From an uncultured Chthonomonadaceae bacterium (lineage in GTDB: Bacteria; Armatimonadota; Chthonomonadetes; Chthonomonadales; Chthonomonadaceae): DNA of 64,000 nt. Each line of letters opens with the position of its first letter. Positions within the stretch are counted from its first letter, which is position 1. The position numbers and the translations under genes are program-made. Positions 1,835-21,682 of the stretch are shown here, piece by piece. The stretch covers positions 224,001 through 288,000 of the forward strand of contig CAWFQB010000002.1 in NCBI GenBank assembly GCA_963817895.1, given 5' to 3'. The notes under the pieces were generated by a model. It ran no database searches, was not told where the DNA came from, and saw only the letters and a program-made list of their open reading frames with translations.

Positions 1835-2551
1835 TTAGTTCGTGCCTCCGCCTGCCGTATGATACCCGGCTTTAATCGCCTCCGATTCCGTCATGTATTT
1901 GCCTTCTTTGGTCTTTCCAAAATAGCGCGTTCCCGGACGCCAGTACGCGCCTGATTTTGTGTTCACCCACACTTGCCCATCGGTTGCGCCTGTTGGCGCA
2001 GAAGCAGATGCGTTCTTTTCTGATCGCGTCCGGCGTCCGTTGCGCGCCTTCGTCAAGGGCTGATCTGTGTGAAAGTATTTCTTGTAGGCCGCAATCCAGT
2101 CCCGTGCGATGTCCTGTTGCGCCGTCTTGATGTCGATCTTGCCTGAACAGATTTCCGAGTGCAGTTCGTTTTCAAGGGCATCTTTGACATGTGCGTTCCA
2201 GGGTTCACTTTTATACAATTCAGGCCACAGATTTTTGATGCTGTTGTTGCCGCCAAGTTCCAGCGATATGAGGTGATCCACTTCATACTCGCCAGGCGCG
2301 TGGCTCGTAATGCCATACTCTTGATACACCTGATTTTTCACGGCTTGTGGGACATTTCGGACTTTCTTCGTGTAGCCAGAAACGCAGATGTCGGCTTTCG
2401 TGACATCCAACGCATCGCCCGGCGTCATCTTGGGATCGGGCAGAATGGGCGGGTTGTTGCCGCGTTGGGCCAGGCCAGAAGAAGCGAGGGCGAGAACGAT
2501 GCCTGCGGCGGCAAAGAGGTTGGTTCGGAGGCGCATAAAATGTCCTTTCAT
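1835..2551 (-). CDS. Secreted HNH-like nuclease-domain protein with small C-terminal domain
   Basis: Signal peptide; YEVDHLISLELGG..NLWPE HNH-like motif; C-terminal VWVNTKSG..Y..KTKEGKYM.E..A..AGY module. Confidence 0.65.
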   Translation of the reverse strand: MKGHFMRLRTNLFAAAGIVLALASSGLAQRGNNPPILPDPKMTPGDALDVTKADICVSGYTKKVRNVPQAVKNQVYQEYGITSHAPGEYEVDHLISLELGGNNSIKNLWPELYKSEPWNAHVKDALENELHSEICSGKIDIKTAQQDIARDWIAAYKKYFHTDQPLTKARNGRRTRSEKNASASAPTGATDGQVWVNTKSGAYWRPGTRYFGKTKEGKYMTESEAIKAGYHTAGGGTN

Positions 2552-2580
2552 GCTTACATATTATTGTACTCTCAAGCGTA

Positions 2581-3609
2581 TTAGAAACGCGAAGGCGGCA
2601 TGTCCGTTCTTGGCAGGCGGAAGAACTCGCAATCTACCGCTTCGTTCGTTCCACAGTAGATTTTTCTGAACTTGCAGTACACAGGCGCGGTGACATCTTC
2701 ATTGCGGTTCTGTCCTTCGTAGCGGCACAACAGGCAGTTACGAATCCGTATGCCCTGCTTGTGTGTTTCTTCTACTAATTTCTTGAACACATCGCCGCGG
2801 CCCATCGGATATACCGTTCGCTTGGAATCAATGAGTTTGCGGTAGATCGTTTTCTCTTTTGTCTTGTGGATTTTGTCCTGAATAAACGACAAAGAACCTT
2901 CTTCCAGATAACATCTGCCTGAATCGAACACGAAAAAGCATAAAAACTCTTTCGTCGCGCACAAACAGTCTGCGTCTGTTGCTGCCACTAAGCGCTTGCC
3001 GAGGTTGAGGAAGGCAGCATGTTTTTCATTGATGTAGCGGTCGATGATAGGGGTGATGTCGTCCTCGGTTGCAATCGGTATTTCGATGATGCGATTGGAC
3101 GAGGCTTGCTTCTTCTCGGAAAGGAAGTGCGTCACGGCTATCTCGATATACACCTTCTGGCGCTCGTCTGCGGTGTTGTAGATCAGCAGGTCAGGGATAA
3201 AACTGTCATCTCGCTTTTCCATGCGGATGCCATTGAAACGCGCAGTCAGGTCGTGTTTCTTCGACACGGTTCCGGCGTCACAATCATGGCCCAAGAGGTC
3301 GTAAAACCGTTGACATTGCTTGGAATGCTGACGCCCAATACGAAAGGGAATGTTTTGCTCTAAACACTCCTTGTAGACGTTGTAGAAGGTTGTCTTTGCC
3401 AGTCGGTGCAGATAGGTTTCTGGCGCGCACACCACCCGCTGTTTGTGCGCGAAGTGCTTTTCCTTCTTCTCCCCTTTTGTCTTGGCGATCAAGGGTTCTC
3501 CACAGCCGACGCAGGTGAATGGCCCAAGCGGTTCACTTCTGTCCGCAGGCAGGGTGAGAATATCAACAATCTGCTCTTGTTCGTTGTGGGCGTAGCGAAA
3601 TTGTGGCAT
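2581..3609 (-). CDS. CoiA-like zinc-finger + PD-(D/E)XK nuclease
   Basis: CVGC..HFAH..C..E.YLH N-terminus; PDLLI..YIEIAVTH nuclease motif; start taken at ATG 3609. Confidence 0.65.
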   Translation of the reverse strand: MPQFRYAHNEQEQIVDILTLPADRSEPLGPFTCVGCGEPLIAKTKGEKKEKHFAHKQRVVCAPETYLHRLAKTTFYNVYKECLEQNIPFRIGRQHSKQCQRFYDLLGHDCDAGTVSKKHDLTARFNGIRMEKRDDSFIPDLLIYNTADERQKVYIEIAVTHFLSEKKQASSNRIIEIPIATEDDITPIIDRYINEKHAAFLNLGKRLVAATDADCLCATKEFLCFFVFDSGRCYLEEGSLSFIQDKIHKTKEKTIYRKLIDSKRTVYPMGRGDVFKKLVEETHKQGIRIRNCLLCRYEGQNRNEDVTAPVYCKFRKIYCGTNEAVDCEFFRLPRTDMPPSRF

Positions 3610-3735
3610 GGCTGTTTTGACGTGAGCATGGTCAGAAATTTTCTGACCATGCTCACCCAGAATAACTATTGCAGAATAGCCGTAATTACATCCCCTGTCC
3701 AATCGAATCCGAATTGGAAGCGAGAGCCATCCAGA

Positions 3736-4911
3736 TTATGCACCTATGGCGAGATTTGCTAGTAACTCAAAAGCAAATGCGCTTGCATGGTCGGCTGCTG
3801 CCTCTTGCGATCCAGAGGCGTCCGAGGCAGATTTGTGATCAATCATATCAGATATGCCACGAATCAAAATGGCGTCCACGTTTTGATTGACATGTGCTGC
3901 CTGAAGAAACCCACGCCCCTCCATTTCTACAGCAACCGCATCTCCATAAGTCGCACGAAGGAAGCGATACGTTTCAGAACGTGTATCCGCGACAACTTGC
4001 TCGCCTGCGGCGATTGGTTTGACATAGGCTTGTGGCGAGTGAGATGAAACAGGGCTATGGATGCGTTTGAGCCATTGTGTCCCGCGCGCTTCGGCACGGG
4101 CATGTTGTTCCATGCGATACGTAGAACGAAACACTTCGGGGCGTGGTTGAAACTCCACGTTGGATTTGCCTGCCTCGTATCCGTATACCTTCGTGGCGGC
4201 GACTACATCTCCGAGTTGGACATCCTTAATACCCCCGCCAACGCCAACAAACATGACTACCTGCGGTGTAAAGAAACTTATGGCTCGCTCAGTCTCAATA
4301 CCAGCACCGGGATTACCTGGGCCGGTTTCGACGACTACAACTTGCCATGATTTGTCGGAAGTTGGAAATGTGCCTTGCTCATAAAGCGTTCCCTGCGGAT
4401 GAGGCACACGCGATAAATTTTCCAGATGCGTGGCAACTGCGCGAAATTCTACAGGCAACGCAGTCAACATCACTGCACAACGTTGCTTTTGAATCAAGAC
4501 TGGTGATGGAGATGAAAGTGTCTGTGGGCCTGTGCTGGACAGGTTATTCACCTGCGAACTGTTAGTGGTTCCTTGTTGAACTGGTGAGTTGCTGACACTG
4601 CCATAAACGTTTATGACATTGCTTGGGTTGGAGTTTGAGGATGAAGTCATGTGTTTACTCGCTGTCATTTCTTGATAAAGTGCGCGCCCGCCCCATTGGA
4701 TAACTGTGGCTCCGCCTATTCCACCAATCGTTTTGACGGCGCTCTTACTACCCAAAAATTGGAGCGCATCAAGAAAGTCTCTCTCCGATATAGGGTTCTC
4801 GGAGACAAGGTAATCGTATAAACTTTGATTGGAAACAGACCTATCACGATCTGGGTTAGCCTCATTCAATGCTGCCAAAACTCGCAACGCATTTTGTTCA
4901 ATCGGGTTCAA
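3736..4911 (-). CDS. PNP_UDP / MTA-SAH nucleosidase-family effector with N-terminal helical (wHTH-like) domain and N/Q/S-rich linker motif
   Basis: [61 protein letters not shown] start overlaps the upstream TGA. Confidence 0.85.
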
Positions 4912-6503
4912 CTCTCGGCCTTTCCCTCTTGGTTGTCGAACGTTGTGTCTTCCGGCAGCGTCTCCGATCTAATGTTCGTAGTCTGTGTACTACCACTTGT
5001 TGCCAATTGTACTGGTGAGTTCACCATGCTGCCATAGTTGTTTAGGACGTTTTGAGGTGCGGCGGACTGCAAATCCTGTCGGAGCGTGTAGAACTGATGA
5101 CTGCGGCGTGCAGCATCCTCAAAGGTTTGCCCTTCCAGCAACTTGCCGAAGCCGGATTGCCAGTTTCTATCGGTCAAGTACGTGGTACGAACAACAGCCT
5201 TCTTACCCATTCGCTTTGGATACAGTTCAAGCATACTGCGTTGAAATCGCTGTACAAAGCGTTCCAGCAATTCTATCATATTGGCGCTGTTTACATTCAA
5301 ATCAACGACTGTATACGCGCTGTATGCTCCGGCAGGCGAAATGGACATCTCAATAGGCCCTGTCTTCACCATGTACACCGGCCCCTCAAAGCCATATACC
5401 TTACTCAGCCAGCGGTCAGGAAAATTGATGTCTTGGAGTGAGAAAACTTGATCTTTCACGGAGGGTATCACGAGTTCCAACAACTCTGTGTCACCGAAAG
5501 GCAGGAGTTCGCCTGCTTCGGTTTCAAAGAAAAACTCCACAAGTAAAGTCGCCCATTTAGGAGATGGTTGGTTTGATGTCGAGGCAATCTCGACAGGGCG
5601 TAGATTTGTGTCCTCTCCGTTGACGGACAAGCAGAAAGCAGGAAAGTCGGAATATGGTTGGTTGAACAGGGAGTATACTTTCTGTGTGAGCGGCGCTCCC
5701 AAACTGCTCAATTCACTCAAGATAGCACTGTCAAGTTCTGTGAGGCGAGCAGAAAATTCTACGTAGCGATTAGATCGGCAATGCCCACGCGGGTATAGCA
5801 CCGGAATCGGTTTGCATTCCGTTGGAACTTCCACCACTTCTCGAACGCGCGCCGGATCAGTAAGTGTAAGGTTGGCCTCTTTTCCCGTCCGGGGTATCTG
5901 ATCAAATAGTTCCGAGGCTCCCACACTGTATATCCATTGCTCAGGGTTCAAACTGCAATTAGCAAAACCATTGTCCATGCCATACACCCACGGCTGATCA
6001 TCAGGGGATTGCATCTCAATTTCGGGTATGGGAATCTGGATAGAAGGGGGATTGGCTAATTCCAAATTGAAACCCAATGTCGATGTTGGATACACAAAGC
6101 CCAACATCAAATCATCCCGTTCAAAAGGTATACTGCCCGCAGGCAGAAAAGCGGGGGACGGAGTCATACGTACTCCTGGCCTGCCATCCTCGGAAACAGC
6201 ATATTCACTGTCAAACCGATAAGGTGAATACGCTTTCGGCAAATACCAGTAAGCATACGAGGACAGCCATCCCCTTCCCGTAACCTGACTTCCAAGTTCG
6301 AGTTCACCTGCACTCACAGCAACACTCAGCGCAACGACATCTTCAAAACTTTTGGCAGCACGTCCTTGTCTTATGTTGGTTCCAATCCGTAATGATTGAA
6401 CGAGTTCGCGCAAGCCTGTGTAGAATCGCAATAAGTGTTGTATGTACTCATTCGTCAAAGTAGGGCACCCCTGGATTGAACTTCCCTTGTGCATATAGAT
6501 CAT
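4908..6503 (-). CDS. Hypothetical protein with C-terminal N/Q/S/G-rich motif
   Basis: 531-aa ORF, no recognised family; the true start may be the TTG at ~6458. Confidence 0.7.
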
Positions 6504-7320
6504 CTAGCCGCTTTAGAATGGAAGGCCATTGTCCGAAAAACTTGGGAAGGATTGGTTGTAACGTTAGCGTTGATTCGTGATCAGAGTATTCTATGAGGCG
6601 ATAGTCACTCGTATCGAACCACTTTGCAAAAGCCGCAGCAGAGATATGAAAGCGGCGCTCATCCCCCTCAAAAACAATGCCCATCAAATAAGGGGGTTGC
6701 GACCCATCCGGTGTCGGCCTCATCCATAGCCCGAACTGAAAAGACGACTGCAACGTTTCCGGCAAAGGCTCTCGGCATGGGCCCAGAAATTGTTTGTCCC
6801 ATCGGGAACCATCTGGGTCTACTCCTGAAACAGGAATGATAAGTTCAGCACCGGGAGCAACACTCCCGTCCACCTCAAACATCCAGGGGCGGATTACTTC
6901 ACTTTTTGAAACTCGTGCGCCGGGAAATAAGGATAGGGTTAGGAATGACCGCTCACCTTCGGGCTGCATCAGCACCCACCCCATTGTGCTCAGGTCTCTA
7001 TCATTTGCTAACGAAGAAGCCTCGATAGCCCATTTTTGATTGTCGCCTTCGACAATGATTGCGTACAGGAAAGGAACTGCCATACTGTCAGGAGCAGCGT
7101 ACAGACCCAGCGTGAAACCTTCAAAAGCCGGGGTGGTAAGCGGCAGGCGTTGAGGATTAGTGTACTCTTTATGCCAGGGCATTCCAGCAGCAATGCTGCC
7201 ATTTACACCGATGACGACTTTTGCCCCATCAGGAATGTCTCCGTCGATGGAAATTAGATATGGGCGGTGTACATCACTTCTGCCAATAAAACGTTTTATT
7301 GTTGAACTCCTTTTTATCAA
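6448..7320 (-). CDS. Hypothetical protein made of two tandem ~125-aa beta-rich repeats
   Basis: PYLISIDG..GAKVVI..W.K...P.R.PL..F.LGL..PFL..I.VEGD versus PWMFEVDG..GAELII..W.K...P.R.PL..F.FGL..PYL..I.FEGD. Confidence 0.7.
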   Translation of the reverse strand: MIKRSSTIKRFIGRSDVHRPYLISIDGDIPDGAKVVIGVNGSIAAGMPWHKEYTNPQRLPLTTPAFEGFTLGLYAAPDSMAVPFLYAIIVEGDNQKWAIEASSLANDRDLSTMGWVLMQPEGERSFLTLSLFPGARVSKSEVIRPWMFEVDGSVAPGAELIIPVSGVDPDGSRWDKQFLGPCREPLPETLQSSFQFGLWMRPTPDGSQPPYLMGIVFEGDERRFHISAAAFAKWFDTSDYRLIEYSDHESTLTLQPILPKFFGQWPSILKRLDDLYAQGKFNPGVPYFDE

Positions 7321-7430
7321 AGCGAGTTGTCAAGAGGCGCGATTTACCCATCATTGTACTCGCCATGTAGGATGTCGATAATTTACCTAATATTGTACTT
7401 CATCTGATGAAGTTATAGTAGACAGAAGTT

Positions 7431-7460
7431 GCAAGAGCCGAAGAAACTTTCGGCTCTTGC
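7431..7460. terminator. 12-bp stem hairpin
   Basis: gcaagagccgaa-gaaact-ttcggctcttgc. Confidence 0.55.
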
Positions 7461-7622
7461 GACGGAATAGAATCTGTCAATTGGCACACTTTCGGCACAC
7501 CATGAGAACATAGTTCACGCCCTACGCACTATGTATCATTAGTCTGCTCGTCTCGCAATTAGGTGACTCGCAACCGGAAATGCTCGTCGTCCTTTGCCAT
7601 TTTGTTCCTCTCGGTTGCATCC

Positions 7623-8270
7623 TCACCGATGCCTGCGGTAGTAACCGTGAACATGCACGACCTTACCCGTTTTGGTATGGCGATAGTAGTCTCGCACATG
7701 AACCGTCCGGCTGCCATGCCCATGCGTCCAGCCCGTCGAAAGTACAGGATCATTAGTAGAACCTACAGGACGCGCATAATCGTGTGCGTTGCTCTCGTCA
7801 TTAGGGCCAGCGCTGTTCCCACCCACATGCAGGCTGCCAGAGGTAGAGGACGAACCCGTATGGCTGGCCCGACGCAGCACTGTTGTACTGTGCGTTGAAG
7901 TTGACGGCGTGACAATGGAGCCAGAGGGGAGCCGATGTTCCACGCGCGCGATAGTTTCAGCGTTGCGTTCCTCGACTACCGAAATGCTTGGCTCTCGATT
8001 GCTTGATGATGGAATGTACCAGGGCTGGTGATTGAAGTAATTTTGCAGCCAGGCAGTTTGGAAGCGCCGTCCATGCCGCGCGTAGATGGTGTTGCGGAGC
8101 AGACACAACTGGTCACGGCTCAACCCGGAGAGAGCGGCTTCGTCCACAGGCTTGTTGAGGTTGATGGTGGGAATACGTATCTGCGAACGATCCTGAGCAT
8201 GACTGGCAAAACCTAAAACGGAGAGCCAGGCAATAATGAGGATGAGGAACGGTGAGCGTCGCATCTGCAT
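7623..8270 (-). CDS. Secreted YARHG-domain protein
   Basis: Signal peptide; LRNTIYARHGRRF..LQNYF..QPWY; start at ATG 8270 after aaaggag. Confidence 0.85.
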   Translation of the reverse strand: MQMRRSPFLILIIAWLSVLGFASHAQDRSQIRIPTINLNKPVDEAALSGLSRDQLCLLRNTIYARHGRRFQTAWLQNYFNHQPWYIPSSSNREPSISVVEERNAETIARVEHRLPSGSIVTPSTSTHSTTVLRRASHTGSSSTSGSLHVGGNSAGPNDESNAHDYARPVGSTNDPVLSTGWTHGHGSRTVHVRDYYRHTKTGKVVHVHGYYRRHR

Positions 8271-8943: not shown

Positions 8944-9149
8944 GTTTGCTCGTCTGACATTTGCCTTCTACACAACAGGATTGCCGTTATATTCAGACGC
9001 CGTGCAAAGATATTCCTGCACGGCGTTTGTCGGAATTTATCAGGAGGATTTTGAGTTCCGTTCAGCGAAAAGAATGCGGCGTCTTGAACCATGTTTTCCA
9101 CATTTTTATGCTGTATGGTAGTGGCTTGGACAGGAGTGAGGTACTTGTA

Positions 9150-11585
9150 TTGAGCGATGATAATTTACTACAACCTGAACTGCTCAACGAAGCCGATACT
9201 TGCCGGAAGTACGTCACGCCACGCCTGCAAGCCGCAGGCTGGGAAGCCGAGCCGCACTCGCTCGTGGAGCAGTACACCTTTACCGCGGGCCGCATCCAGA
9301 TTAGGGGCCAGAAGGCGAAGCGCAAGCCCGGCAAGCGTGCCGATTATCTACTTCGCTATACCCGTGATTACCCCATCGCAGTTGTTGAGGCAAAGGCCGA
9401 AGAATTGCCCGCCGCGCAAGGCGTTGAACAGGCGAAAGAGTACGCAGAGGTGCTTGGGCTGTATTTCGCCTATTCTACAAATGGCAAAGAAATCATTGAA
9501 TTCGACTACCTGGCAGGAACGGAACAGGTTGTTGCCGACTATCCCACCCCTGCCCAATTATGGCAGCGGCTTCGGGTAGCACGCAAAGTGACTAAAGACT
9601 CCGAGGCGGTTTTGCTGTCGCCCTCCTACCATCAGGGTGTAGGTGCAACACGCTACTATCAGGACATCGCCATCCAGCGCGTACTGGAAGCCGTCCTTGC
9701 CGGACAACGCCGGGTTCTTCTCACCTGCGCTACGGGTACTGGCAAGAGCAATATCGCCTTTCAGATTGCTTGGAAGTTGTGGAATGCGCGCTGGAACCAG
9801 ACAGGCCGCCAGGGACGCCCGCGTGTTTTGTTTATTGCTGACCGCTCGGTGTTGGTTGACGACCCTATGGACAAAATGTTCGCGCCGCTCGGTACAGCGA
9901 GACACAAGATCGAAGGCAAGGCAGAGACCGGGCGCGACATCTACTTCGCCACCTATCAATCTCTTGCCGGAGACGAGCGGCGAGACGGGTTGTATCGTGA
10001 GTTCGATCCCAACTTCTTTGACCTGGTGATTGTGGATGAAGCGCATCGAGGCAGCGCACGCGAGGATTCCAACTGGCGCGACATCCTCAACCATTTTGCA
10101 CCGGCCTATCAGTTGGGTATGACCGCCAGCCCCATACGCGATTCAAATCGCGACACCTACCAGTATTTCGGCAACCCCGTTTATACATATAGTCTCAAGC
10201 AAGGAATAGATGACGGCTTCCTCGCACCGTACCGCGTTTACCGCATCCAAACTGTCTGGGATGAGATTGGCTACCGCCCCGGCAAGGGAGCCGTAGATCG
10301 ACATGGGCAGGCTATCCCCGACGAAATCTTCAAGACCAAAGACTTCGAGCGCGTCATTGTGTTGCAGGCGCGCACGGAGGCCATTGCTCGTCACCTCTCC
10401 GACTTTCTCAAGTCCACAGATCGGTTCGCCAAAACCATCGTGTTTTGCGCGAACCAGGAACACGCGCTCGCCATGCGGCAGGCGCTTATCAATGAGAACC
10501 GCGACCTGGTAAAAACCTACCCCAACTACGTTTGTCGGGTGACGGCTGACGAGGGCGACATCGGACGGGCTCATCTGTCACGCTTTCAAGAAGTGGACAC
10601 CAAAACGCCCACAATCCTGACAACGAGCCAACTGCTCACTACGGGCGTAGATGCCCCCACTTGCAAGAATGTCGTTCTCGTGCGCCCGATTGACAGCATG
10701 GTGGAATTCAAACAGATAATCGGCAGGGGAACACGGGTTCGGGAAGACTACGGCAAACTGTTCTTCAACATTCTTGATTACGCAGGTTCCGCGAGCGAAC
10801 GCTTCGCCGACCCACAATTCGATGGCGATCCGGCCCTGCTCACTGAAATAGAATTGGACGAACACGGGCAGGCCACTGAGGAGAACATCCGCGCCGCTGA
10901 GGAGAAAGAAGCCTCTGATCCCGAAGACGAAGATGCCAATGTAGGTGAGGAGGATGCCGATGAAGGTTATACTGGCGGCTACAAAGGCGGCGGGCGACGC
11001 AAGAAGTATTATGTAGACGGCGGCATCGTTCAGATTGCCAGCGAGATTGTACAGGAATTAGACGCGGATGGTAATGTCCTGCGAGTCATGCGTCTGACCG
11101 ACTACACGGCAGACAAGATGCGGATGCTGTGCGCCACGCCCGAAGAAATGCAGCAGTCATGGAGCGACCCGGTACAGCGGGGCGAGATCGTGAACGCGCT
11201 GGAAGAACGCGGCATAGATTTTGAGGAACTGGCGCGCGTAGTGGGCAAGCCGGACGCCGATCCCTTCGACGTACTCTGCCATCTCGCCTACCAAGCGCCC
11301 CTGCTCACCCGCCGTGAGCGCGCCGACCGATTGAAGCGCAGTAAGCCCGACTTCTTTGACGCCTACGGCCCTACCGCCCGTGCCATTTTGGAAGAACTAC
11401 TGGACAAGTACGCAGAGCATGGCGTGGAGCAGTTTCAAATTCCCGATGCGCTGAAAGTGCCGCCGATTTCCAACCACGGCAACATTTCGGAGATCATAAA
11501 GGCGTTTGGCGGCGCGGAGGTGTTGAGAAGCGCGGTGATGGGATTGCAAGCCATGCTGTACGAACAGGCGGGAACCGCCAGATGA
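9150..11585 (+). CDS. hsdR: Type I restriction enzyme R subunit (EcoEI-like)
   Basis: EADT..ADYLL..VVEAK nuclease; ATGTGKS, VDEAHRGS, FKQIIGRGTR helicase motifs; EcoEI-type C-terminus; TTG start after aggag. Confidence 0.93.
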   Translation: MSDDNLLQPELLNEADTCRKYVTPRLQAAGWEAEPHSLVEQYTFTAGRIQIRGQKAKRKPGKRADYLLRYTRDYPIAVVEAKAEELPAAQGVEQAKEYAEVLGLYFAYSTNGKEIIEFDYLAGTEQVVADYPTPAQLWQRLRVARKVTKDSEAVLLSPSYHQGVGATRYYQDIAIQRVLEAVLAGQRRVLLTCATGTGKSNIAFQIAWKLWNARWNQTGRQGRPRVLFIADRSVLVDDPMDKMFAPLGTARHKIEGKAETGRDIYFATYQSLAGDERRDGLYREFDPNFFDLVIVDEAHRGSAREDSNWRDILNHFAPAYQLGMTASPIRDSNRDTYQYFGNPVYTYSLKQGIDDGFLAPYRVYRIQTVWDEIGYRPGKGAVDRHGQAIPDEIFKTKDFERVIVLQARTEAIARHLSDFLKSTDRFAKTIVFCANQEHALAMRQALINENRDLVKTYPNYVCRVTADEGDIGRAHLSRFQEVDTKTPTILTTSQLLTTGVDAPTCKNVVLVRPIDSMVEFKQIIGRGTRVREDYGKLFFNILDYAGSASERFADPQFDGDPALLTEIELDEHGQATEENIRAAEEKEASDPEDEDANVGEEDADEGYTGGYKGGGRRKKYYVDGGIVQIASEIVQELDADGNVLRVMRLTDYTADKMRMLCATPEEMQQSWSDPVQRGEIVNALEERGIDFEELARVVGKPDADPFDVLCHLAYQAPLLTRRERADRLKRSKPDFFDAYGPTARAILEELLDKYAEHGVEQFQIPDALKVPPISNHGNISEIIKAFGGAEVLRSAVMGLQAMLYEQAGTAR

Positions 11586-12154
11586 AAATCAACTTTGGTG
11601 TCTTCGGCAAGAAAGACGAATTCGCCATCGAGATTCCTGAGCCTTTTGCGGCGGCACCTGACGAACCAGAACATACAAGTGCCACTGGCATCATAGCGGA
11701 TGTCGAGGAAACCCACAGTCTTGCAAAGGCATTCCGTCAGGCAATTCAGAAGTGTGACCAAGATTTGCTGCCCATAAACTTTGAACGTTTTCCAAATGGA
11801 GCCTGCGGCGTGACCTCGCGCCTGCTGCAAAAGTACCTGCGTGAGCGTGATCAGGGCGAGTTTAATTACATCTATGGAATACGGACGTGGAAATCCCAGA
11901 GTTGGCGCTCTCACGCCTGGTTGGAACAGAACGGCTTGATTGTGGACATCACTGCGGATCAATTTTATGATATGCGACGGGCTGTGTTGGTTACAACGGA
12001 TCGCGCATGGCATACTAAGTTTCGTAAACGACGAATTTCTCGTGGCACAACATGGGAAAGGGGCAGTTGTTCGGCAGACGAAAATCTGCTTACCACCTAT
12101 CCGCACATTGCCACCCTCGCGGATGAAATTCGAGAAAAAAGTAGGAAGGATTGA
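11582..12154 (+). CDS. Hypothetical protein with papain/transglutaminase-like Cys-His-Asp motifs, inserted between hsdR and hsdM
   Basis: FPNGACG..S.LL; SHAWLE..GLIVDITADQF; 4-nt overlaps with both neighbours. Confidence 0.7.
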   Translation: MKINFGVFGKKDEFAIEIPEPFAAAPDEPEHTSATGIIADVEETHSLAKAFRQAIQKCDQDLLPINFERFPNGACGVTSRLLQKYLRERDQGEFNYIYGIRTWKSQSWRSHAWLEQNGLIVDITADQFYDMRRAVLVTTDRAWHTKFRKRRISRGTTWERGSCSADENLLTTYPHIATLADEIREKSRKD

Positions 12155-14040
12155 CAGAGCACATGCCTTCGAGAAAAAAGGAGCAAATGGAACTGGCAGG
12201 GATGCCCGCAAAGCCCATACGTGCTAAACGCGAGGAAAAACAGGTGACCACGGCGCAGCGTCTTGGCAGTCTCGTCAAGTCCGCGCGCGACCTCATGCGT
12301 AAAGATAAGGGACTTTCCGGGGACGCTGACCGGCTGCCGCAACTCACCTGGATTATGTTCCTCAAGTTCCTAGACGATTTGGAACGAACGCGCGAGGAGG
12401 CGGCTCCGCTATCCGGGGAGGTGTTCCGCCCTATTCTGGAAACTCCCTACCGCTGGCGCGATTGGGCGGATCGTGAGAGTGGGCCAACCGGCGACGACCT
12501 TTTGGATTTCATCGGCGGGCAGGAAGTTGTAATTGGCAAGGATGCGACTGGGGCGGACATCAAAAAGCCGGGGCTGTTTCGGTATTTGCGCGGCTTTCAA
12601 GGCAGTGATAATCCGCAACGCGCCGTCATCGGCAACATCTTCCGAAATGTCCAGAACCGCATGAACGACGGGTATCTCCTTCGCAGTGTTTTGAACCTTG
12701 TAGATGGGATTCATTTCGACAGCAGCGAGGAAATTCATACCCTGGGCCGGTTGTACGAGTCCATGCTCAAGGAGATGCGTGATGCAAGTGGCGACGCCGG
12801 GGAGTTTTATACGCCGCGCCCGGTCGTAAGGTTCATGGTCGAGGTGATGAACCCTCGCTTGGGCGAAACTGTGTACGATCCTGCCTGCGGCACAGGCGGC
12901 TTCCTGAGTGAGGCGTTCCTCCACCTCAAGCAGCAGTGCCGCAGGGCAGAGGATAACTCTACATTGCAGGCGCGCAGCATCCTGGGCGGTGAGGCCAAAC
13001 CGCTGCCGTATCTGCTGTGTGAAATGAATTTGCTGTTGCACGGGTTGGACGCGCCGGACGTGCGCTTCGACAATAGCCTCAAGGTACGGCTGGGCGAAAT
13101 TGGTGAACAAGAGCGCGTGAGCGTGGTACTTACCAACCCACCTTTCGGCGGTGAGGAGGAGGCGAGTGTGCAGAACGGCTTTCCAGCCGACAAGCGCACA
13201 TCGGAGACAGCCCTGTTGTTTCTGCAACTCATTATGAGGAAATTGCATCGTAGTCCTGAGCCGGGGCGAGCAGGCGTGGTTGTGCCCAACGGCATCTTGT
13301 TTGCGGACGGCGTTGCGGCGCGCATCAAGGAGGAACTGCTCACGGAGTTCCGCCTGCATACCATTGTGCGACTGCCCGTTGGTGTCTTCGCGCCGTACAC
13401 CAGCATCCCCACGAACCTGCTGTTTTTCGAGGCGGGCGCACCCACAACAGAAATCTGGTATTACGAGCAGCCTTTGCCCGAAGGCCGCAAATCCTACTCT
13501 AAGACGCAGCCCATGCAGTACGAGGAGTTTGCCCCGCTCTTAGCCTGGTGGGATGTGCGCGAGGAGAATGAGCGCGCCTGGCGTGTGGATTGGACACAGA
13601 CCTATGAGACGGCGCGCACGGCGGCACAACCGCACTGGGACGCCGCGCAGGAAGCGGAAGCCAAAGCCCGCGAGTATGGCGCGACAGCGAAGGAGGCGGG
13701 TGAGCAGATGCAATCGGCGCAACGTCTTCTGCAATCCGGGATGCTGCCGCAGGAGGAGCGCGCTCGCATACAGGCTGAAATCGAGAACCAGCGTGCCCGA
13801 CGCGATCAGGCCCAAGAAATCGAACGCAGCCTTCGGGAGCGCGTCCGCGAGGAGCAGACAAAAGGCGATGCCCTGTATTGGCCCATCTACAACCTGGATC
13901 GCAAAAATCCGAGTCGTGCTGAGGACTTTGAACATTTGCCGCCTGAACAACTGATTGGCGATATTCTGAATAAAGAACTGCAAATTATCTCTTTGATGCA
14001 AGAGATCGAGCGAGCGCTTTTGGTAGGGGTAACAGCATGA
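12151..14040 (+). CDS. hsdM: Type I RM N6-adenine methyltransferase
   Basis: GEFYTPRPVV, YDPACGTGGFL, LTNPPFGG; ~100-aa coiled-coil insert near the C-terminus. Confidence 0.93.
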   Translation: MTEHMPSRKKEQMELAGMPAKPIRAKREEKQVTTAQRLGSLVKSARDLMRKDKGLSGDADRLPQLTWIMFLKFLDDLERTREEAAPLSGEVFRPILETPYRWRDWADRESGPTGDDLLDFIGGQEVVIGKDATGADIKKPGLFRYLRGFQGSDNPQRAVIGNIFRNVQNRMNDGYLLRSVLNLVDGIHFDSSEEIHTLGRLYESMLKEMRDASGDAGEFYTPRPVVRFMVEVMNPRLGETVYDPACGTGGFLSEAFLHLKQQCRRAEDNSTLQARSILGGEAKPLPYLLCEMNLLLHGLDAPDVRFDNSLKVRLGEIGEQERVSVVLTNPPFGGEEEASVQNGFPADKRTSETALLFLQLIMRKLHRSPEPGRAGVVVPNGILFADGVAARIKEELLTEFRLHTIVRLPVGVFAPYTSIPTNLLFFEAGAPTTEIWYYEQPLPEGRKSYSKTQPMQYEEFAPLLAWWDVREENERAWRVDWTQTYETARTAAQPHWDAAQEAEAKAREYGATAKEAGEQMQSAQRLLQSGMLPQEERARIQAEIENQRARRDQAQEIERSLRERVREEQTKGDALYWPIYNLDRKNPSRAEDFEHLPPEQLIGDILNKELQIISLMQEIERALLVGVTA

Positions 14041-15189
14041 GCATAGGGTGGCCTCTCGTTCCATTGGCAAAAGTCGCTCGTCCTATCTCTCGCGTAGTGT
14101 CCGTTACATCTGGGGAAACCTATCGCACGATTGGGGTAAGGTGGTGGGGAGAGGGAGCGTATGAACGGCAAACCATAGACGGCTCCCAGACTGCCGCAAA
14201 AACCCTGAACATCGTCCGCGAAAACGATTTGATCATTAACAAAATATGGGTGCGACATGGTTCGACCGCAATTGCGTCTGCTGCGGTGGATGGATGTGCG
14301 GCTTCCGGCGAGTTTCCGATGTTTGAACTTGATCCAAGTCGTGTTATGCCACGTTGGATACACTGGTTGACCAAAATGCGTCCCTTCTGGGATAGTTGTG
14401 ACCGACTTTCTCAAGGAACAAGCGGCAAGAACCGCATACGTCCAGAGTTATTTCTCACAATCTTAGTTCCACTTCCGCCCCTACACGAACAGCAGCGCAT
14501 CGTGGCGCACATTGAGGAGTTGGTGGGCAAGATTACGCAAGCGGGGGAACTGAGACGTGAAAGCCGGAGAGATATGAGGGCTGCTCTACTGGCTTCCTAC
14601 TCGGCGATCATTAAAGACGCCTGCCGATTCACCATGTCAACTGTCGCTCCGCTGGTGCGCCGTCCCATCAATGTTATCGAAGAAACACTTTACCCGGAAC
14701 TTGGAATTCGGTCGTTTGGTAAAGGTACTTTCCATAAATCTCCAGTAAGGGGGAGTGAAATCGGCTCCAAACGGCTGTTTGGTATCGAACCTGGCGATCT
14801 GTTGTTCAACATTGTTTTCGCATGGGAGGGCGCAGTAGCCATTGCAAAACCAGAAGATGTTGGGCGCGTAGGTTCCCATCGCTTTCTGACTCGTGTTGTA
14901 AATCCCGATTTGGCGTTAGCCTCTTATCTCTGTTTCCACTTTTTGACCGAAAGAGGACTGGAACAACTACCAGCAAGCATCTCCCGGTGGCGCAGGAAGA
15001 AATCGCACTCTCGGCCTCAAAACATTGGAGAAAATTGAAGTACCGATTCCAACTCTTGACGCACAACGAACATTCGATAGATTGTTGGCGCGCAGTGACG
15101 CAATTGAAGCGTTGCAAAAAGAGGCCGATGTAAAAATAGAAGCCCTTGTACCTTCGTTGCTCGACCTGGCGTTCAGGGGCGAACTTTGA
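14037..15189 (+). CDS. hsdS: Type I RM specificity subunit; +1 frameshift at ~14971 (probable sequencing error)
   Basis: Two TRDs, PLPPLHEQQRIV; the shifted frame continues QQASPGGAGRNRTL...IPTLDAQ...SLLDLAFRGEL* (TGA 15187-15189). Confidence 0.85.
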
Positions 15190-15352: not shown

Positions 15353-15874
15353 ATGAAAAAGAATTCAGCAGGCGGGTCGCCCCAGTCGGCCTCGGTCGTC
15401 AGTCTGGAAGATTTGGGGAAACTGATCCGCGAAAAGCGTAAGGCTGCGGATTTGACATTGGAACAGGCCGCGCAACAAGCAGGTGTCAGCGCGGCAACTC
15501 TTTCTCGATGGGAACGACAGGGAAGATTGCAAGAAGGCGTTGATGGTACAGCACGAACGATGCGCACCCCCGACATGCAGACCCTTGCCGCTATTACCCG
15601 CTGGCTCGGAGTGTCCATAGATAGGGTTAGCACTTTCGAGACACCACCGCCCGCGCACAGTGTGGTGCATCACGCAGGCGAAGCCACGCCTGACATTGTA
15701 GAAGCCCATCTAAGAGCAGATCGCAACCTTGACCCGGACACAGCCGGGGCGCTGTCGCGGATGTTTCGGGTCGCCTATGAGCAGTTTGCCAAGTTGCAGG
15801 CTGCTGCGCCGTCCGAAGATCGTCCAGAAAGGAAACCGGATAATGAGCCGGATGACGCCACCAAAACACAATGA
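15353..15874 (+). CDS. XRE-family HTH transcriptional regulator
   Basis: LGKLIREKRKAADLTLEQAAQQAGVSAATLSRWERQG. Confidence 0.88.
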   Translation: MKKNSAGGSPQSASVVSLEDLGKLIREKRKAADLTLEQAAQQAGVSAATLSRWERQGRLQEGVDGTARTMRTPDMQTLAAITRWLGVSIDRVSTFETPPPAHSVVHHAGEATPDIVEAHLRADRNLDPDTAGALSRMFRVAYEQFAKLQAAAPSEDRPERKPDNEPDDATKTQ

Positions 15875-16499
15875 GGACAAGGAAAGTAGCAATCGCGCGC
15901 CGCGTATAGTGACGACTGGATTGCGCGAGTTTCTGCGACGGATCGAGGAGAACGGACTGGCTCTGCGGCAGAAGGCAGGTATTGGGCCGGAAGAACGACT
16001 GTATCCGCGCAGACTGGCGACAGAGTTCAAGTTGCACTTCATGGAACTCAACGATATGGAAGCGCTTGCGCCCGCAGACCGGGCACACATCGAAAGCAGT
16101 GATGCCAGGAAGTGGTCGGGCAGCGGTCTTCCGCTTCCCAATGACGAGTGGTTGATTATCTTGCACCCCTGCCAAACACCGGAGCGCGCCACCGTGACCA
16201 CGATGGAAGAAATAGCGCATGTTCACTATAGACACAAACCTTGTCGCCTGGTAACAGATGCAGCCGGGGTGACGCATCGGGAGTACGACCCGGAAATTGA
16301 GGACGAAGCCTACTGGACAGCATCCGCAGCCCTATTGCCTTCTAAAGCCCTGGCGCGGCGCGTGTATAAAGGCGTGACCACGCAAGCCATTGCCGCGGAG
16401 TTCGGCGTCAGCACACAACTGGTAGAGTTCCGCATTAAGACACTGGGGTTGTGGAGTGACCACAAAGCGCGCCATCGGGAGGAGGCAGTCACCGCATGA
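15843..16499 (+). CDS. ImmA/IrrE-family metallopeptidase (EExxH variant)
   Basis: PERATVTTMEEIAHVHYRH...EIEDEAYWTASAALLP...IAAEFGVS..LVEFR; start uncertain. Confidence 0.8.
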   Translation: MSRMTPPKHNEDKESSNRAPRIVTTGLREFLRRIEENGLALRQKAGIGPEERLYPRRLATEFKLHFMELNDMEALAPADRAHIESSDARKWSGSGLPLPNDEWLIILHPCQTPERATVTTMEEIAHVHYRHKPCRLVTDAAGVTHREYDPEIEDEAYWTASAALLPSKALARRVYKGVTTQAIAAEFGVSTQLVEFRIKTLGLWSDHKARHREEAVTA

Positions 16500-18131: not shown

Positions 18132-20471
18132 ATGCCACAGACCACAAATCAGACCAACAACACCAGCCTACTTCTGAATATCGCTCCGGTAGAGTTTCAG
18201 GATAGGGAGATCGCAGTGGGCGTATTCGCCTATGCTGACAATCAACAATTGCGCACCCTACGAAGCGAATACCGAGAGACACACCTTTTCCGACGTGAAC
18301 GCAACAATGAGCAAGACGAGATTTTGTGTGTTCCCCTCATTTCAGACGTTGAACCACTGGGTGACAAGACACGAACCATTCGGCTTTACAATCATCTTCA
18401 CCTTTGTGCGGCGCTCGTTCGCGAGGCCATGCTTGAATTTCTCTATAAGCATGGCATCCAGAGTTTTGGGTATGATCCAATCGAGTACGTGGTCAACGCA
18501 GTCGGTGATGATCTCCTGCGCGCCTCGCTACCTTCTGGCGTGGTGGCACCCTCATGGATTTCCGTTAAGGTACTCAACGCATTGACAATCCGCCCGATGC
18601 ACATGGAACGCCAAGCGCCGTTTGTGGGTGTCGCGCTTGACTTTCACGCACAGCACCTTGTGAATGTTCCCTGCGATCAGTTGATTGCAATGGGGTTGAA
18701 CATCAAGGGATTATACGTCAGTCAGGCATTGCCCGAATCAGACCCGCGTGTGTTTCCGCGTGAGCGACTGTTGGGGCGCGTTCAGTCTGTGCAGAATGGA
18801 AAATTGTCGCTTTCAGATGTGCGCCATGACGATGGCCCGGACTGTGTAGAGGCCAGTGCCGTATACCTTGAACCACGTCACGACGCCTTCGATGTATGTC
18901 TGAACCATGCGTTCAAGCAGCGTGTCAGGCAAGTAAGAGACAACCTACACCGCAACCTGCACCAAATTCAAAGTGGCCCAGATAAGTTGGATCGGCTTCG
19001 CAAACGCATGGAAACGCTAACTAACCGCAAGACACCATTGGAAATGCTGCCTGGCATTCCGTTCTCGTTCCAGCCATTTCTCGCGGAGGGGACAAGCAAA
19101 ACGTTTCCGCTCGTGAACCACGCCAAGCGCCCCGTCTACGTGTTCGATCCTACTGGTACGCGCACGGCAGAGTATAATGACCCCGGCATCACCCAATACG
19201 GCCCATACAGTGCCTACGGCAACCTGTTCACGCCGAACCTACCCAACATGGTCGTGATCTGCCAGAAGAACAAAAAGGGACTCGTCGAACAGTTTCTCGC
19301 CAAGTTCAAGACAGGCATCGCCGGGTCGCGTTTTGAGACCGGATTTGTGGGTAAATACCGGTTGGCAGATGTCAACTTCGAGTTTTTCCTTACGGAGACG
19401 GAGAGTGCGGAAGACTATGAGGAAGCGGCAAACCGCGCCATTCACGCCTACGCCAAAGCCGACAAGCGCATCCACTTAGGCTTTGTGCAAATAGAAGACC
19501 GGTATCGTGAATTGCGTGGAGGGACAAATCCCTATTTGGTAACAAAGGCTGCTTTTTTGTCACACCAAATCCCTGTTCAGGAGTTCACCATCCAGAAGGC
19601 GACACAGGAAGACAAATATCTCTCGCATATTCTGAACACGATAGGGCTGGCGGTATATGCCAAACTTGGCGGAACGCCCTGGCTCATGCCATCCAACCGT
19701 GTGATCGCTCACGAACTGGTTTTCGGATTGGGCAGCGCGCAGGTGAATGAAGGACGGTTTGGAGAGCGACGCAGATATGTGGGCATCACCACGGTGTTCA
19801 GTGGAGATGGCAATTACCGTCTCGCCAATCTGTCGCAGGCAGTGCCTCTAAGGAGGTATGAGGAAGCGTTGCTCGACTCCCTGCGGGAAACCGTAACTAA
19901 AGTGCGCGCCGACAATAACTGGCAACCCGGCGACACTGTACGCCTGATATTCCACGCATTCAAACCCATGAAATATGCTGAGATCGACGCCGTAACTGCG
20001 TTGATGGATGAACTTGGCGACTACGAAGTAGAATTCGCCTTTCTACACATTGCCGAGGAACACCCGTACCTCCTGTTCGACCCGGCGCAGAAGGGTGTGT
20101 ATTCCTACGAAATCCGGGCCAATAAAGGCGTATATGCCCCTATGCGCGGCATATACTTCCGCCTTTCCGAACACGAAACTCTGATGTCGCTTGTCGGCGC
20201 GCGTGAAGTTAAAAGACCAGAAGATGGTCTGCCACGTCCAGTGCTTTTGAAACTACATCCACGCTCCACGTTCGCGGATCATATCTATCTCGCCCGCCAA
20301 GTTTTTATGTTTTCCTGTCACTCATGGCGAAATTTTACGCCTGGCGCACACCCAGTTACGATTCATTATTCATCGCTGATAGCACGTATGCTCGGCGAAT
20401 TGGAAACAGTGCCGACGTGGAATCCAAACGTTATGTATGGAAGGATTGGCGAAACAAGGTGGTTCCTATAA
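18132..20471 (+). CDS. ago: Long-B prokaryotic Argonaute (RsAgo-like, catalytically inactive PIWI)
   Basis: 779 aa; MID NPYLVTK..IPVQ..YAKLGG; PIWI HELVFGLG, GITTVFSGDG, WQPGDTVRLIFHA, PVTIHYS; ends RWFL; no DEDX tetrad. Confidence 0.92.
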   Translation: MPQTTNQTNNTSLLLNIAPVEFQDREIAVGVFAYADNQQLRTLRSEYRETHLFRRERNNEQDEILCVPLISDVEPLGDKTRTIRLYNHLHLCAALVREAMLEFLYKHGIQSFGYDPIEYVVNAVGDDLLRASLPSGVVAPSWISVKVLNALTIRPMHMERQAPFVGVALDFHAQHLVNVPCDQLIAMGLNIKGLYVSQALPESDPRVFPRERLLGRVQSVQNGKLSLSDVRHDDGPDCVEASAVYLEPRHDAFDVCLNHAFKQRVRQVRDNLHRNLHQIQSGPDKLDRLRKRMETLTNRKTPLEMLPGIPFSFQPFLAEGTSKTFPLVNHAKRPVYVFDPTGTRTAEYNDPGITQYGPYSAYGNLFTPNLPNMVVICQKNKKGLVEQFLAKFKTGIAGSRFETGFVGKYRLADVNFEFFLTETESAEDYEEAANRAIHAYAKADKRIHLGFVQIEDRYRELRGGTNPYLVTKAAFLSHQIPVQEFTIQKATQEDKYLSHILNTIGLAVYAKLGGTPWLMPSNRVIAHELVFGLGSAQVNEGRFGERRRYVGITTVFSGDGNYRLANLSQAVPLRRYEEALLDSLRETVTKVRADNNWQPGDTVRLIFHAFKPMKYAEIDAVTALMDELGDYEVEFAFLHIAEEHPYLLFDPAQKGVYSYEIRANKGVYAPMRGIYFRLSEHETLMSLVGAREVKRPEDGLPRPVLLKLHPRSTFADHIYLARQVFMFSCHSWRNFTPGAHPVTIHYSSLIARMLGELETVPTWNPNVMYGRIGETRWFL

Positions 20472-21682
20472 GCAAAACAAGCAGTATTCTTTTCAGCGAT
20501 GTACGGGCAACACTGGCACGGGTGGCACAACAAGCCGAAGGCCGCAATGATGCCGTAGAAGCCGCTTGCGCATGGTTGCTCCCCGGTCTGGATACAGTCT
20601 CAAGACTGGCAACAATGGCAGAACACGCGGCTACCTGTAAAGGGCAGATGCGCTCCTACAAACAGGTTGCCGTCTTAGGGTATGCGGCAAGTCTGTTGCT
20701 GGACAAGTTCCAACAGCAGGCTGCACTCGAAAATGGTCTGAAATGGCTTTCTGGCTTGCCTGCTATGAGTGCGGGCGCACTTATGGGCTTCGCCACTGAT
20801 CCCGTCTCGTTGCTTGGTATCGCACTCGGAACAAGATGCGCTTGTGATGAAGTAAAGTCTGCCGTACGGAATTGGGCTGCTAAATTTCTTTCTGACGAGT
20901 ATAACGCTCTGGGTACGGAACCGTGGCACAGTTGCTTGCTGGCGGTCACAGCACAGATTTTAACAATAGAACCTGTGTTACCCATTCCCATTGAGACGGA
21001 AGCAGCGTGTGTGCGGGTCGCCATGCGATCAAAAGGATTATTGCCTGCAAACTCCTCGAATGAAGCGGACGAGGAGTTTGTCTTAACACTTCTGAAAGAA
21101 AGCCGTGCTACAGAAACGGATTGCACCCATGCTGCCATTCAGATGGTCGCACTCGACTGGATTAGGCGCAAAGCGCCAACCGTTATACCAGCGCGCATGA
21201 CGCCTGAAGATGTCGTCAGTCTGTTGAAACATACGGAGTTCGCCCTCAAGCGTTGGACTTGGGAGGACAAGCCCAAAACCACAACAGGAATCGCTCGACA
21301 GTGGCACATAGACAATGAGTACCATTTGCAAAATCTGCTGTGGACACTCCTCGCCCCCATATTTCCTGACCTCACAGACGAGGAATATACCATTCAACTC
21401 GGCTCTAAAAATCCTCGCATTGATCTTGGCATTCCTTCCCTCAAATTGATCATTGAAGCAAAATTCATGCGCATGGGCGACCCGCCGAAAAAGTTTATTG
21501 AGGAGATTGCGGCAGACGCCAGCCTTTATTTGGTGGAAGGGGCGCGGTACAACCAGATTGTCGCTATTATTTGGGATGACACAGCACGCACAAACCTGCA
21601 CACAGAGATGATACGCGCTATGAACCAGATTGATGGTGTGCTGGATGCCGTAGTTGTGTCCCGCCCAGGAAACTGGACATGA
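20459..21682 (+). CDS. Argonaute-associated PD-(D/E)XK nuclease (C-terminal DpnII/MboI-like REase domain)
   Basis: NEYHLQNLL..F.DL.DEE..RIDL..IIEAK..EEIAAD..Y; GTG 20459 overlaps the ago stop, ggaagga upstream. Confidence 0.8.
   Translation: MVPISKTSSILFSDVRATLARVAQQAEGRNDAVEAACAWLLPGLDTVSRLATMAEHAATCKGQMRSYKQVAVLGYAASLLLDKFQQQAALENGLKWLSGLPAMSAGALMGFATDPVSLLGIALGTRCACDEVKSAVRNWAAKFLSDEYNALGTEPWHSCLLAVTAQILTIEPVLPIPIETEAACVRVAMRSKGLLPANSSNEADEEFVLTLLKESRATETDCTHAAIQMVALDWIRRKAPTVIPARMTPEDVVSLLKHTEFALKRWTWEDKPKTTTGIARQWHIDNEYHLQNLLWTLLAPIFPDLTDEEYTIQLGSKNPRIDLGIPSLKLIIEAKFMRMGDPPKKFIEEIAADASLYLVEGARYNQIVAIIWDDTARTNLHTEMIRAMNQIDGVLDAVVVSRPGNWT

Follow-up and report, generated by a model that had tools for sequence, protein, structure and literature searches.

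We analysed a 64,000-nt stretch of contig CAWFQB010000002.1 from an uncultured Chthonomonadaceae bacterium, hereafter called the window (the 7.48-Mb genome to which it belongs is labelled G000). On the minus strand of the window we found three closely packed genes, which encode a 290-aa protein, a larger globular protein that we call the core, and a 391-aa effector protein with a PNP_UDP_1 domain. The core and the effector protein share a motif of ~31 aa, and this common tag probably lets the core recruit or switch on the nucleosidase. The TTG start of the effector gene overlaps the stop codon of the core gene in the sequence TTGA, as noted in a preliminary description of this DNA, which had read the two genes as a candidate amyloid-motif signalling pair. 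The 531-aa protein of that description exists as an open reading frame (ORF; 6503..4908) with the translation given there. However, the most likely start of the core gene is the TTG at position 6461, which gives 517 aa and reproduces the start of the 87%-identical ortholog P0001. From this TTG, the core gene overlaps the first gene by 14 nt. A scan of positions 2400-7800 for promoters and terminators did not rise above the shuffled expectation (promoter-like 6 versus 5.0; terminator-like 3 versus 6.4).

In the core, the presumed sensor, the shared motif is C-terminal and followed by 18 aa; in the effector protein it lies inside the chain, N-terminal to the PNP domain (Table 1). Between the two copies, 17 of 31 residues are identical, and the segment as a whole is rich in N, Q, S, G and V. 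By inspection, the copies are rich in N, Q, S, T, G and V/I, contain no K, and have a G-delimited three-segment layout with an invariant central P. The translations and a BLASTP alignment confirmed that the two adjacent genes hold this motif where the preliminary description had placed it, and they also upheld its impression that the proteins are otherwise unrelated: with composition-based statistics, the motif segment reached E 2e-7 while all remaining segments stayed at E >= 0.95. A profile-profile comparison of the core family with the PNP family by hhalign likewise aligned the motif alone (39 columns, probability 87.6, E 3.5e-6).

Table 1. Coordinates of the three-gene locus and of neighbouring features in the window.
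Feature	Positions	Strand	Basis or remark
Gene 1, 290-aa tandem-repeat protein	6448..7320	-	ORF and self-comparison
Gene 2, core	4908..6461	-	TTG start at 6461 gives 517 aa; ORF open from ATG at 6503 gives 531 aa
Core-side motif copy	4965..5057	-	aa 483-513 of the 531-aa ORF
Gene 3, 391-aa effector protein	3736..4911	-	N-terminal domain, then motif, variable linker, PNP_UDP_1
Effector N-terminal ~90-aa domain	4642..4911	-	no family assignment
Effector-side motif copy	4534..4626	-	aa 96-126 of the 391-aa ORF
PNP_UDP_1 domain	3760..4470	-	aa 148-384, Pfam PF01048
373-aa CoiA_N-type zinc-ribbon protein	2581..3702	-	Pfam CoiA_N, E 1.6e-7
Type I restriction-modification: hsdR, unassigned 190-aa ORF, hsdM, hsdS	8961..15038	+	PADLOC/NCBIfam
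Class II prokaryotic Argonaute and Helical-REase partner	18132..21682	+	PADLOC, E 2.3e-247 and 5.7e-108

The motif is specific within its own genome. Searched against the 107,787 six-frame ORFs (>= 40 aa) of G000, a hidden Markov model (HMM) of the motif gave two matches only (E 5.9e-22 and 7.6e-18), the next-best match having E 0.76. At the DNA level, the two copies are identical at 53 of 93 bases (57%), and therefore a recent DNA duplication or gene conversion was ruled out as the origin of the motif. This low identity also points to an old similarity that was preserved at the level of the protein. Weak motif matches in three other Armatimonadota (L007, L009 and L012; ORFs of ~600-800 aa; E 4e-4 to 4e-3) cover only 14-16 residues and were treated as chance. 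A match on an Azospirillum plasmid (L016) is an unannotated fragment flanked by insertion sequence (IS) elements.

Orthologs of both proteins keep the motif. It is present in the core orthologs P0001 and P0003 (62% identity), and the effector orthologs P0008, P0009, P0010 and P0011 have the same layout as the window protein with the motif retained. The motif and both genes co-occur in three orthologous loci, namely the window, the locus L001 of the sister genome and the pair P0003/P0009; because the latter two proteins come from one and the same JGI contig of 5,656 bases, we infer that their genes are adjacent. Loss of the motif, or of the partner gene, in homologs would have spoken against the pairing proposed in the preliminary description, and neither was seen in any of the three orthologous loci available. 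The recurrence of the motif in paired adjacent genes, which that description had suggested searching for, was found in part: there are three orthologous pairs, but they belong to a single lineage and do not amount to independent recurrence. Among the best 120 PNP relatives listed, only 5 carry the motif.

These observations bear on an alternative in which the motif is an evolutionary leftover that serves as a flexible linker and has no role in pairing. The 391-aa gene would then have arisen by recombination between an AbiTi-like gene and a PNP gene, and the core tail would have acquired the segment by partial duplication or by fission of a fused ancestor. The core and the PNP protein might cooperate via other surfaces or a diffusible signal. 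N/Q/S/T-rich segments are indeed common as linkers. However, when five PNP orthologs (56-87% identical to the window protein) are aligned, 14 invariant columns lie in aa 99-123, whereas the following linker (aa 124-146) has none, and no other part of the first 146 residues of the effector protein is as well conserved as the motif. Both partners have also retained the motif at 58-62% overall identity, and the age of the similarity, as judged from the DNA, argues in the same direction. Judging from these alignments, the motif is under selection, and we regard the leftover or linker origin as unlikely, although two further points in its favour emerge from the comparison with AbiTi described below.

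The core consists of a globular domain (aa 1 to ~470 in the 517-aa numbering) followed by the motif-bearing tail. Its AlphaFold2 (AF2) model, for which a 49-sequence alignment was used and a 5-sequence version with a predicted local distance difference test score (pLDDT) of 45.9 was discarded, has a mean pLDDT of 86.4 and a predicted TM-score of 0.87. Residues 473-491 and 505-517 fall below a pLDDT of 50, and the tail is thus modelled as disordered, as would be expected of a free tag. No match to the core was found in Pfam, NCBIfam or PADLOC, and no P-loop NTPase appeared among the top structural rows of the AF2 model, in agreement with the earlier statement that no NACHT or NB-ARC domain is visible. 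A Foldseek comparison, which the preliminary description had proposed, returned nothing at E <= 1e-3 from PDB or BFVD, and the ESM Atlas gave no usable match. With VIA-align, the best Z score (7.9, possibly just a common arrangement) was obtained for OB-fold domains over residues ~31-300. We consider the OB-like barrel a weak structural hint, which would point to nucleic-acid binding by the core. We presume that the core is a sensor or scaffold.

The core family is rare. A HMMER search against 1,835,955,588 representatives gave 47 matches at E <= 1e-3 (9 at <= 1e-30), and 6 were obtained from 5.8 billion clusters by a word-based search. Among 401 Armatimonadota genomes, the core has a patchy distribution with only two occurrences, in the genome of the window and in a second genome of its genus; a third member of the genus, whose assembly is 91% complete, gave no match. 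About 35 proteins of ~350-450 aa (P0136-P0170) are distant relatives of the core (E 3e-11 to 6e-4), and their inclusion made the AF2 model far better. No Pfam match was found in the 12 of them that were scanned, and no PADLOC match in the 6 scanned.

At the position where the window protein has its motif, other core relatives have an effector domain. Six of them are fused there to a CHAT protease (P0005, P0006, P0127, P0131, P0135 and the core of locus L002), and one, P0128, is fused directly to PNP_UDP_1 without the motif (aa 489-767, E 8.9e-15). P0004 and P0130 have other, unassigned C-terminal extensions, and the motif-tail form is represented by the window protein, P0001 and P0003. When the motif HMM was run over the 170 proteins collected, only orthologs matched at E < 1e-18, and P0128 was not among them. 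The existence of fused, all-in-one homologs at the motif position is as in amyloid-signalling pairs, for which the pattern of all-in-one proteins versus motif-linked pairs served as a defining feature (10.1101/2020.01.06.895854). The fused core-PNP protein can also be read in terms of the leftover or linker origin, where fission of such a protein is conceivable; its fusion linker, however, lacks the motif.

The 290-aa protein accompanies the core. As the preliminary description had suggested, it is a tandem-repeat protein: two ~110-aa repeats (about aa 22-130 and 147-255) match each other at BLASTP E 7e-16, which reveals an internal duplication. No match to it was found in Pfam, PADLOC, NCBIfam, PDB sequences or the ESM Atlas. 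A 273-aa ortholog is present in L001, and in L002 a 418-aa homolog (E 2e-35) is encoded directly upstream of the core-CHAT gene, the 290-aa/core pair being kept there at 30-35% identity. Because L002 keeps the 290-like gene beside a core-CHAT gene, sequence comparison points to the 290-aa/core pair as the constant part of the system and to the effector as a variable part attached at the core C-terminus.

The effector protein carries, as had been predicted, a PNP_UDP domain, which matches PNP_UDP_1 at E 1.8e-26 with 93.4 bits against a gathering cut-off of 25.1. In PADLOC the domain matches PDC-M60C (E 1.3e-19) and the CBASS 'PN-superfamily' effector (E 3.1e-17). The best 120 relatives listed include proteins in which a PNP domain of 50-65% identity is fused to EAD7, bDLD1, Cap17-like_N, iSTAND, AAA_16/NB-ARC or TIR domains, and because of these fusions of close relatives to immune domains we consider the protein an effector of the conflict-system type. 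By sequence, the domain is best placed in an immune-effector clade and not with the housekeeping MTAN/DeoD enzymes. PNP-domain effectors are known to cleave ATP in phage defence (10.1101/2023.01.24.525353).

A non-immune role seems very improbable to us. In this reading, the PNP protein would be an enzyme of nucleoside salvage or signalling, regulated and assisted by two accessory proteins, and the defence genes nearby would be coincidental. It could draw on the sub-threshold similarity to the NCBIfam models for methylthioadenosine/S-adenosylhomocysteine (MTA/SAH) nucleosidase and futalosine hydrolase, and on the fact that, of all components of the operon, the PNP domain alone matches a PADLOC model. 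However, the housekeeping nucleosidase models of NCBIfam stay far below their cut-off (best 72 versus 169 bits), the nearest PNP relatives have the immune fusions listed above, core relatives swap PNP for CHAT, two independent loci adjoin known defence systems, and the distribution is sporadic.

The N-terminal domain of the effector protein has no family assignment. Residues 1-135 gave no Pfam match at E <= 1, and hence no effector-associated domain (EAD) or bacterial Death-like domain (bDLD) model on the effector side, the core being likewise without one. No PDB sequence matched the N-terminal domain, and a word-based homolog search with aa 1-135 returned only the protein itself and its L001 ortholog. 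Many close relatives of this PNP domain (among them P0013, P0014, P0020, P0022, P0023, P0027, P0033, P0035 and P0109) carry other short segments rich in G, N, S, I and V, which precede the PNP domain or, in P0109, form the C-terminus; these segments look like further tag-type motifs.

The motif has a second, probable relationship, with AbiTi proteins of abortive infection (Abi). Positions 2-30 of the PADLOC AbiTi profile match effector aa 97-125 (E 0.0012), and an AbiTi-like family profile (A6, positions 55-133) matches effector aa ~49-131 (E 0.0058), which is its sole match among the genome ORFs. An hhalign comparison of A6 with the effector-side profile A3 gave probability 81 and E 1.2e-5. 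Taken with the motif, the C-terminal part of the effector N-terminal domain is similar to the first half of AbiTi-like proteins of the winged helix-turn-helix (wHTH) type, the winged-helix label being suggested by the sequence pattern. In L001, a third motif gene (10895-12955; wHTH, motif, AbiTi-like helical domain) directly follows the PNP gene. An IS with a DDE transposase (11288-12619) interrupts this third gene, whose second half gives an AbiTi match of E 6.3e-9. The window lacks both this AbiTi-like gene and the IS; in the junction alignment, its PNP gene end is joined to the sequence that precedes the CoiA-like gene.

A motif search over the 401 Armatimonadota genomes gave clusters of adjacent matches in two genomes of another family (L005 and L006). 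Each contains three adjacent paralogs (L005:107-2480 and L006:99-2490) that consist of a wHTH or coiled-coil N-terminus, an N/Q motif and a helical domain, and that match the whole PADLOC AbiTi model as well as the C-terminal half of PDC-M14B; these triplets may form a hetero-oligomeric Abi module. On a Nostoc plasmid (L015:1-6341), an AbiTii domain is fused to a PDC-M14B-like helical domain, and the gene for this fusion, a wHTH-motif-helical gene and a PDC-M28C-like P-loop gene follow DUF87 (HerA-like) and NurA genes in what looks like a composite defence locus.

Because this type of motif heads AbiTi-like modules, one of which sits after the PNP gene in L001, the comparison suggests that the motif is a mobile element of Abi-type proteins, here apparently detached from its helical domain and placed on two unrelated proteins. 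The motif is private to the two genes within their own genome, where only these two ORFs carry it, but not beyond it, since it also matches the N-terminal element of AbiTi-like modules. The same relationship supplies the two further points for the leftover or linker origin: the effector motif and the region preceding it match the N-terminal half of AbiTi-like proteins, and an AbiTi-like gene adjoins the PNP gene in L001.

The AbiTi comparison also raises the possibility that the motif is not homotypic, but an extended-peptide handle that is read by a third component, which binds or cuts both proteins. Candidates for such a component are a protease, the 290-aa protein with its two repeats, and AbiTi-like proteins with their armadillo-like helical domain. 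This helical domain comes immediately after the motif in AbiTi-like proteins, and its sequence profile matches PDB entries of designed armadillo-repeat proteins: positions 145-212 of A6 (for example aa ~140-205 of the protein encoded at L005:1839-2480) match 5mfd_A at E 1.9e-8 and 4plq_A at E 1.2e-6. Designed armadillo-repeat proteins bind extended peptides. In addition, the L001 locus carries such an AbiTi-like gene, the two equivalent repeats of the 290-aa protein could hold two tags, and core relatives use a CHAT protease.

Nevertheless, we consider a third component quite unlikely. The AbiTi-like C-terminal helical domain of ~85 aa is absent from both motif proteins of the window, and the A6 profile detected no AbiTi-like helical domain anywhere in G000, an assembly of 81% completeness in which it matches the PNP gene only. 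In L001 the IS interrupts the AbiTi-like gene, and the window operon encodes no protease. The 290-like protein persists in L002 although the effector there is fused and the motif is absent, which indicates that the role of this protein is independent of the tag; for this reason, a model in which each repeat of the 290-aa protein holds one tag was ruled out as the main model. For AbiTi itself, a review proposes an endoribonuclease-like or nuclease-like fold (PMC13064643).

In summary, we think there is a slightly better than even chance that the window encodes an NTPase-free defence system, not described before, in which the effector is attached in trans via a homotypic tag. The system is most likely a conflict system of the anti-phage, abortive-infection type. 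Its conserved unit would be the 290-aa protein together with the ~470-aa globular core, with an effector that can be swapped at the core C-terminus. In the lineage of the window, the fusion would have been replaced by a ~30-aa tag on the core tail, with the partner tag placed before the PNP domain encoded by the translationally coupled next gene. Upon a trigger, the core would change its oligomeric state, and the tags of the core and the PNP protein would assemble by homotypic beta-strand pairing, possibly with amyloid-like templating as in bacterial amyloid signalling sequences (BASS) and fungal motifs. The PNP domains would thereby be clustered and activated, ATP or another purine nucleotide would be depleted, and the infected cell would be stopped. 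In this scheme we infer the defence function, the sensing by the core, the binding through the motif, the activation by clustering, and the substrate.

Several observations weigh against this scheme. The tag-linked arrangement is seen in one lineage only, with three orthologous pairs, and therefore neither recurrent independent pairing nor co-variation can be demonstrated. The core, the 290-aa protein and the effector N-terminal domain match no PADLOC model, and therefore the defence reading rests on the context and the effector. The AbiTi-like profile matches the core-side motif weakly (probability 6, E 0.0057), and the G000 assembly is incomplete. With regard to templating, amyloid signalling motifs are typically rich in N, Q, G, V and I and poor in K, P and L. 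The composition of the motif and its three-segment layout fit an amyloid motif; the central proline, the internal position and the mirrored orientation stand against it. This proline is invariant in all 8 aligned motif copies, and proline substitutions abolish foci in BASS3 (PMC9815663) and BASS11 (10.1101/2024.11.07.622273). The orientation found here is the reverse of the described rule, by which the motif is located at the receptor N-terminus and the effector C-terminus (PMC12261475), and the foci formed by the fungal motif PUASM depended on the motif position relative to the fused domain (PMC9815663). Taken together, templating of the amyloid type is plausible for the tag, and the invariant central proline urges caution.

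A more far-reaching version of the tag-linked scheme would make the tag a true prion-like amyloid signalling sequence of a new family in mirrored use. The sensor would represent a new NTPase-free OB-like family that takes up CHAT, PNP or an AbiTi-like module by fusion or by tag, and lactococcal AbiT and the PDC-M14 candidates would use the same templated assembly. We regard this version as possible but rather doubtful.

Downstream of the effector gene, on the same strand and 34 nt away, lies the gene for the CoiA_N-type protein. Proteins of this type, ~370-380 aa long, are encoded downstream of the system in all three loci compared (window 2581-3702 on the minus strand, L001:13180-14286 and L002:11217-12359; Pfam CoiA_N at E 1.7e-7 in L001 and 3.3e-10 in L002), and the proteins of the window and L002 could not be aligned with each other outside the zinc ribbon. 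The CoiA_N protein is possibly a fourth component, or else a separate frequent neighbour. The preliminary description had also placed the operon in a defence-rich island, which is borne out by the type I restriction-modification system and the class II prokaryotic Argonaute in the window. Between hsdR and hsdM, a 190-aa ORF without a family match (11582-12154, plus strand) overlaps both genes, and the region between the restriction-modification and Argonaute genes (15729-17479, plus strand) encodes two proteins, one with an IrrE/M78 peptidase domain (E 4e-14) and the other with a BpsA_C domain (branched-chain polyamine synthase C-terminal; E 5e-17). In L002, the core-CHAT locus lies between an IetA/IetS pair upstream (L002:2793-6569; E 3e-114 and 3e-233) and a PIN/VapC-like gene with a small upstream ORF (L002:10192-11168).

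If the tag-linked reading is correct, the locus would add a new sensor family with swappable effectors and a candidate defence system that is absent from PADLOC v2. It would offer a natural comparison of fused and tag-linked effectors for one and the same sensor, in which the function of the tag is directly testable. It would also tie short signalling tags to AbiTi, an Abi component known since 2002 whose mechanism is still open, and extend motif-based recruitment in bacteria to an enzymatic, nucleotide-depleting effector. Finally, it would extend such recruitment to a mirrored orientation, to which searches for pairs with the motif at the receptor N-terminus and the effector C-terminus would be blind. 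We found no description of this motif, of the core family, or of a bacterial PNP effector coupled by such a motif in the literature searched, although bioRxiv supplements with BASS tables, which may bear on this, were outside the search.

The window pair has several features in common with the Bell/NLR pairs of BASS1-10 described by Dyrka et al. (NLR, NOD-like receptor), including a motif shared with the neighbouring gene, all-in-one homologs, and a composition rich in N, Q, G, V and I (10.1101/2020.01.06.895854). CHAT is one of the non-Bell effector domains reported there to carry BASS, while PNP is absent from the bacterial effector domains that its section on this subject names. The receptors of these pairs are NLRs with NACHT or NB-ARC and repeat domains, whereas the window core has neither an NTPase nor a repeat domain, the orientation is mirrored, and the central proline is invariant.

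A closer counterpart is Bab/Agp of E. coli ECOR25 (Ibarlosa et al.), in which amyloid motifs of adjacent genes drive Abi and the sensor is not an NLR (10.1101/2024.11.07.622273). Like the window pair, Bab and Agp are encoded by adjacent genes in a defence island, share a motif (~20-25 aa) as their sole similarity, and are proposed to act through Abi. In contrast, their motif is located at the sensor N-terminus and at the C-terminus of a small pore-type (Bell-like) effector, and not at the sensor C-terminus and before a PNP enzyme. Amyloid formation and motif dependence are experimental results for Bab/Agp, while the window pair is known from its sequence, and we compared the two by description and not by motif sequence. 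The claim of a new architecture in the preliminary description was therefore overstated: a non-NLR sensor with an amyloid motif (BASS11) was already described in phage defence, and the window pair is a variant rather than a new category.

In fungi, PNP_UDP effectors (PF01048) are likewise linked to their sensors by a motif instead of a fusion, through PUASM, sigma and HRAM-like motifs (Wojciechowski et al. 2022, PMC9815663). In those systems the sensors are NLRs and the PNP domain precedes the motif, and the PUASM pattern FxGxGxQxxGxGxF does not fit the window motif. The PNP-fold immune effectors Cap17 and DtcC of CBASS and Detocs (10.1101/2023.01.24.525353) are a further parallel, and relatives of the window PNP protein carry Cap17-like_N. 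The window system, however, has neither a cyclic-nucleotide-sensing nor a phosphorelay domain, and activation would come from the tagged partner.

On close PNP relatives, EAD7 (PF19960) and bDLD1 (PF20689) occupy the same N-terminal position as the window motif. Such adaptors are believed to make homotypic pairs with a second copy that the sensor protein carries, and Kaur et al. 2020 reportedly defined them as the effector-associated and bacterial Death-like domains of NTP-dependent conflict systems. They are folded helical domains of ~60-100 aa, whereas the element of the window is a non-helical, low-confidence segment of ~30 aa. Finally, the alignment of the motif with AbiTi, from the lactococcal two-gene system AbiT, covers the initial ~30 positions of the AbiTi model, and PDC-M14B belongs to the same comparison; unlike in AbiTi, the window motif is separated from the helical domain and located on two unrelated proteins. 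Each by itself, sensor/effector pairs linked by a motif, sensors other than NLRs, and PNP effectors are thus already known, with motif-coupled PNP effectors known from fungi only in the literature covered, while the sensor family, the mirrored internal tag, the coupling of a bacterial PNP effector by a tag, and the tie to AbiTi are new.

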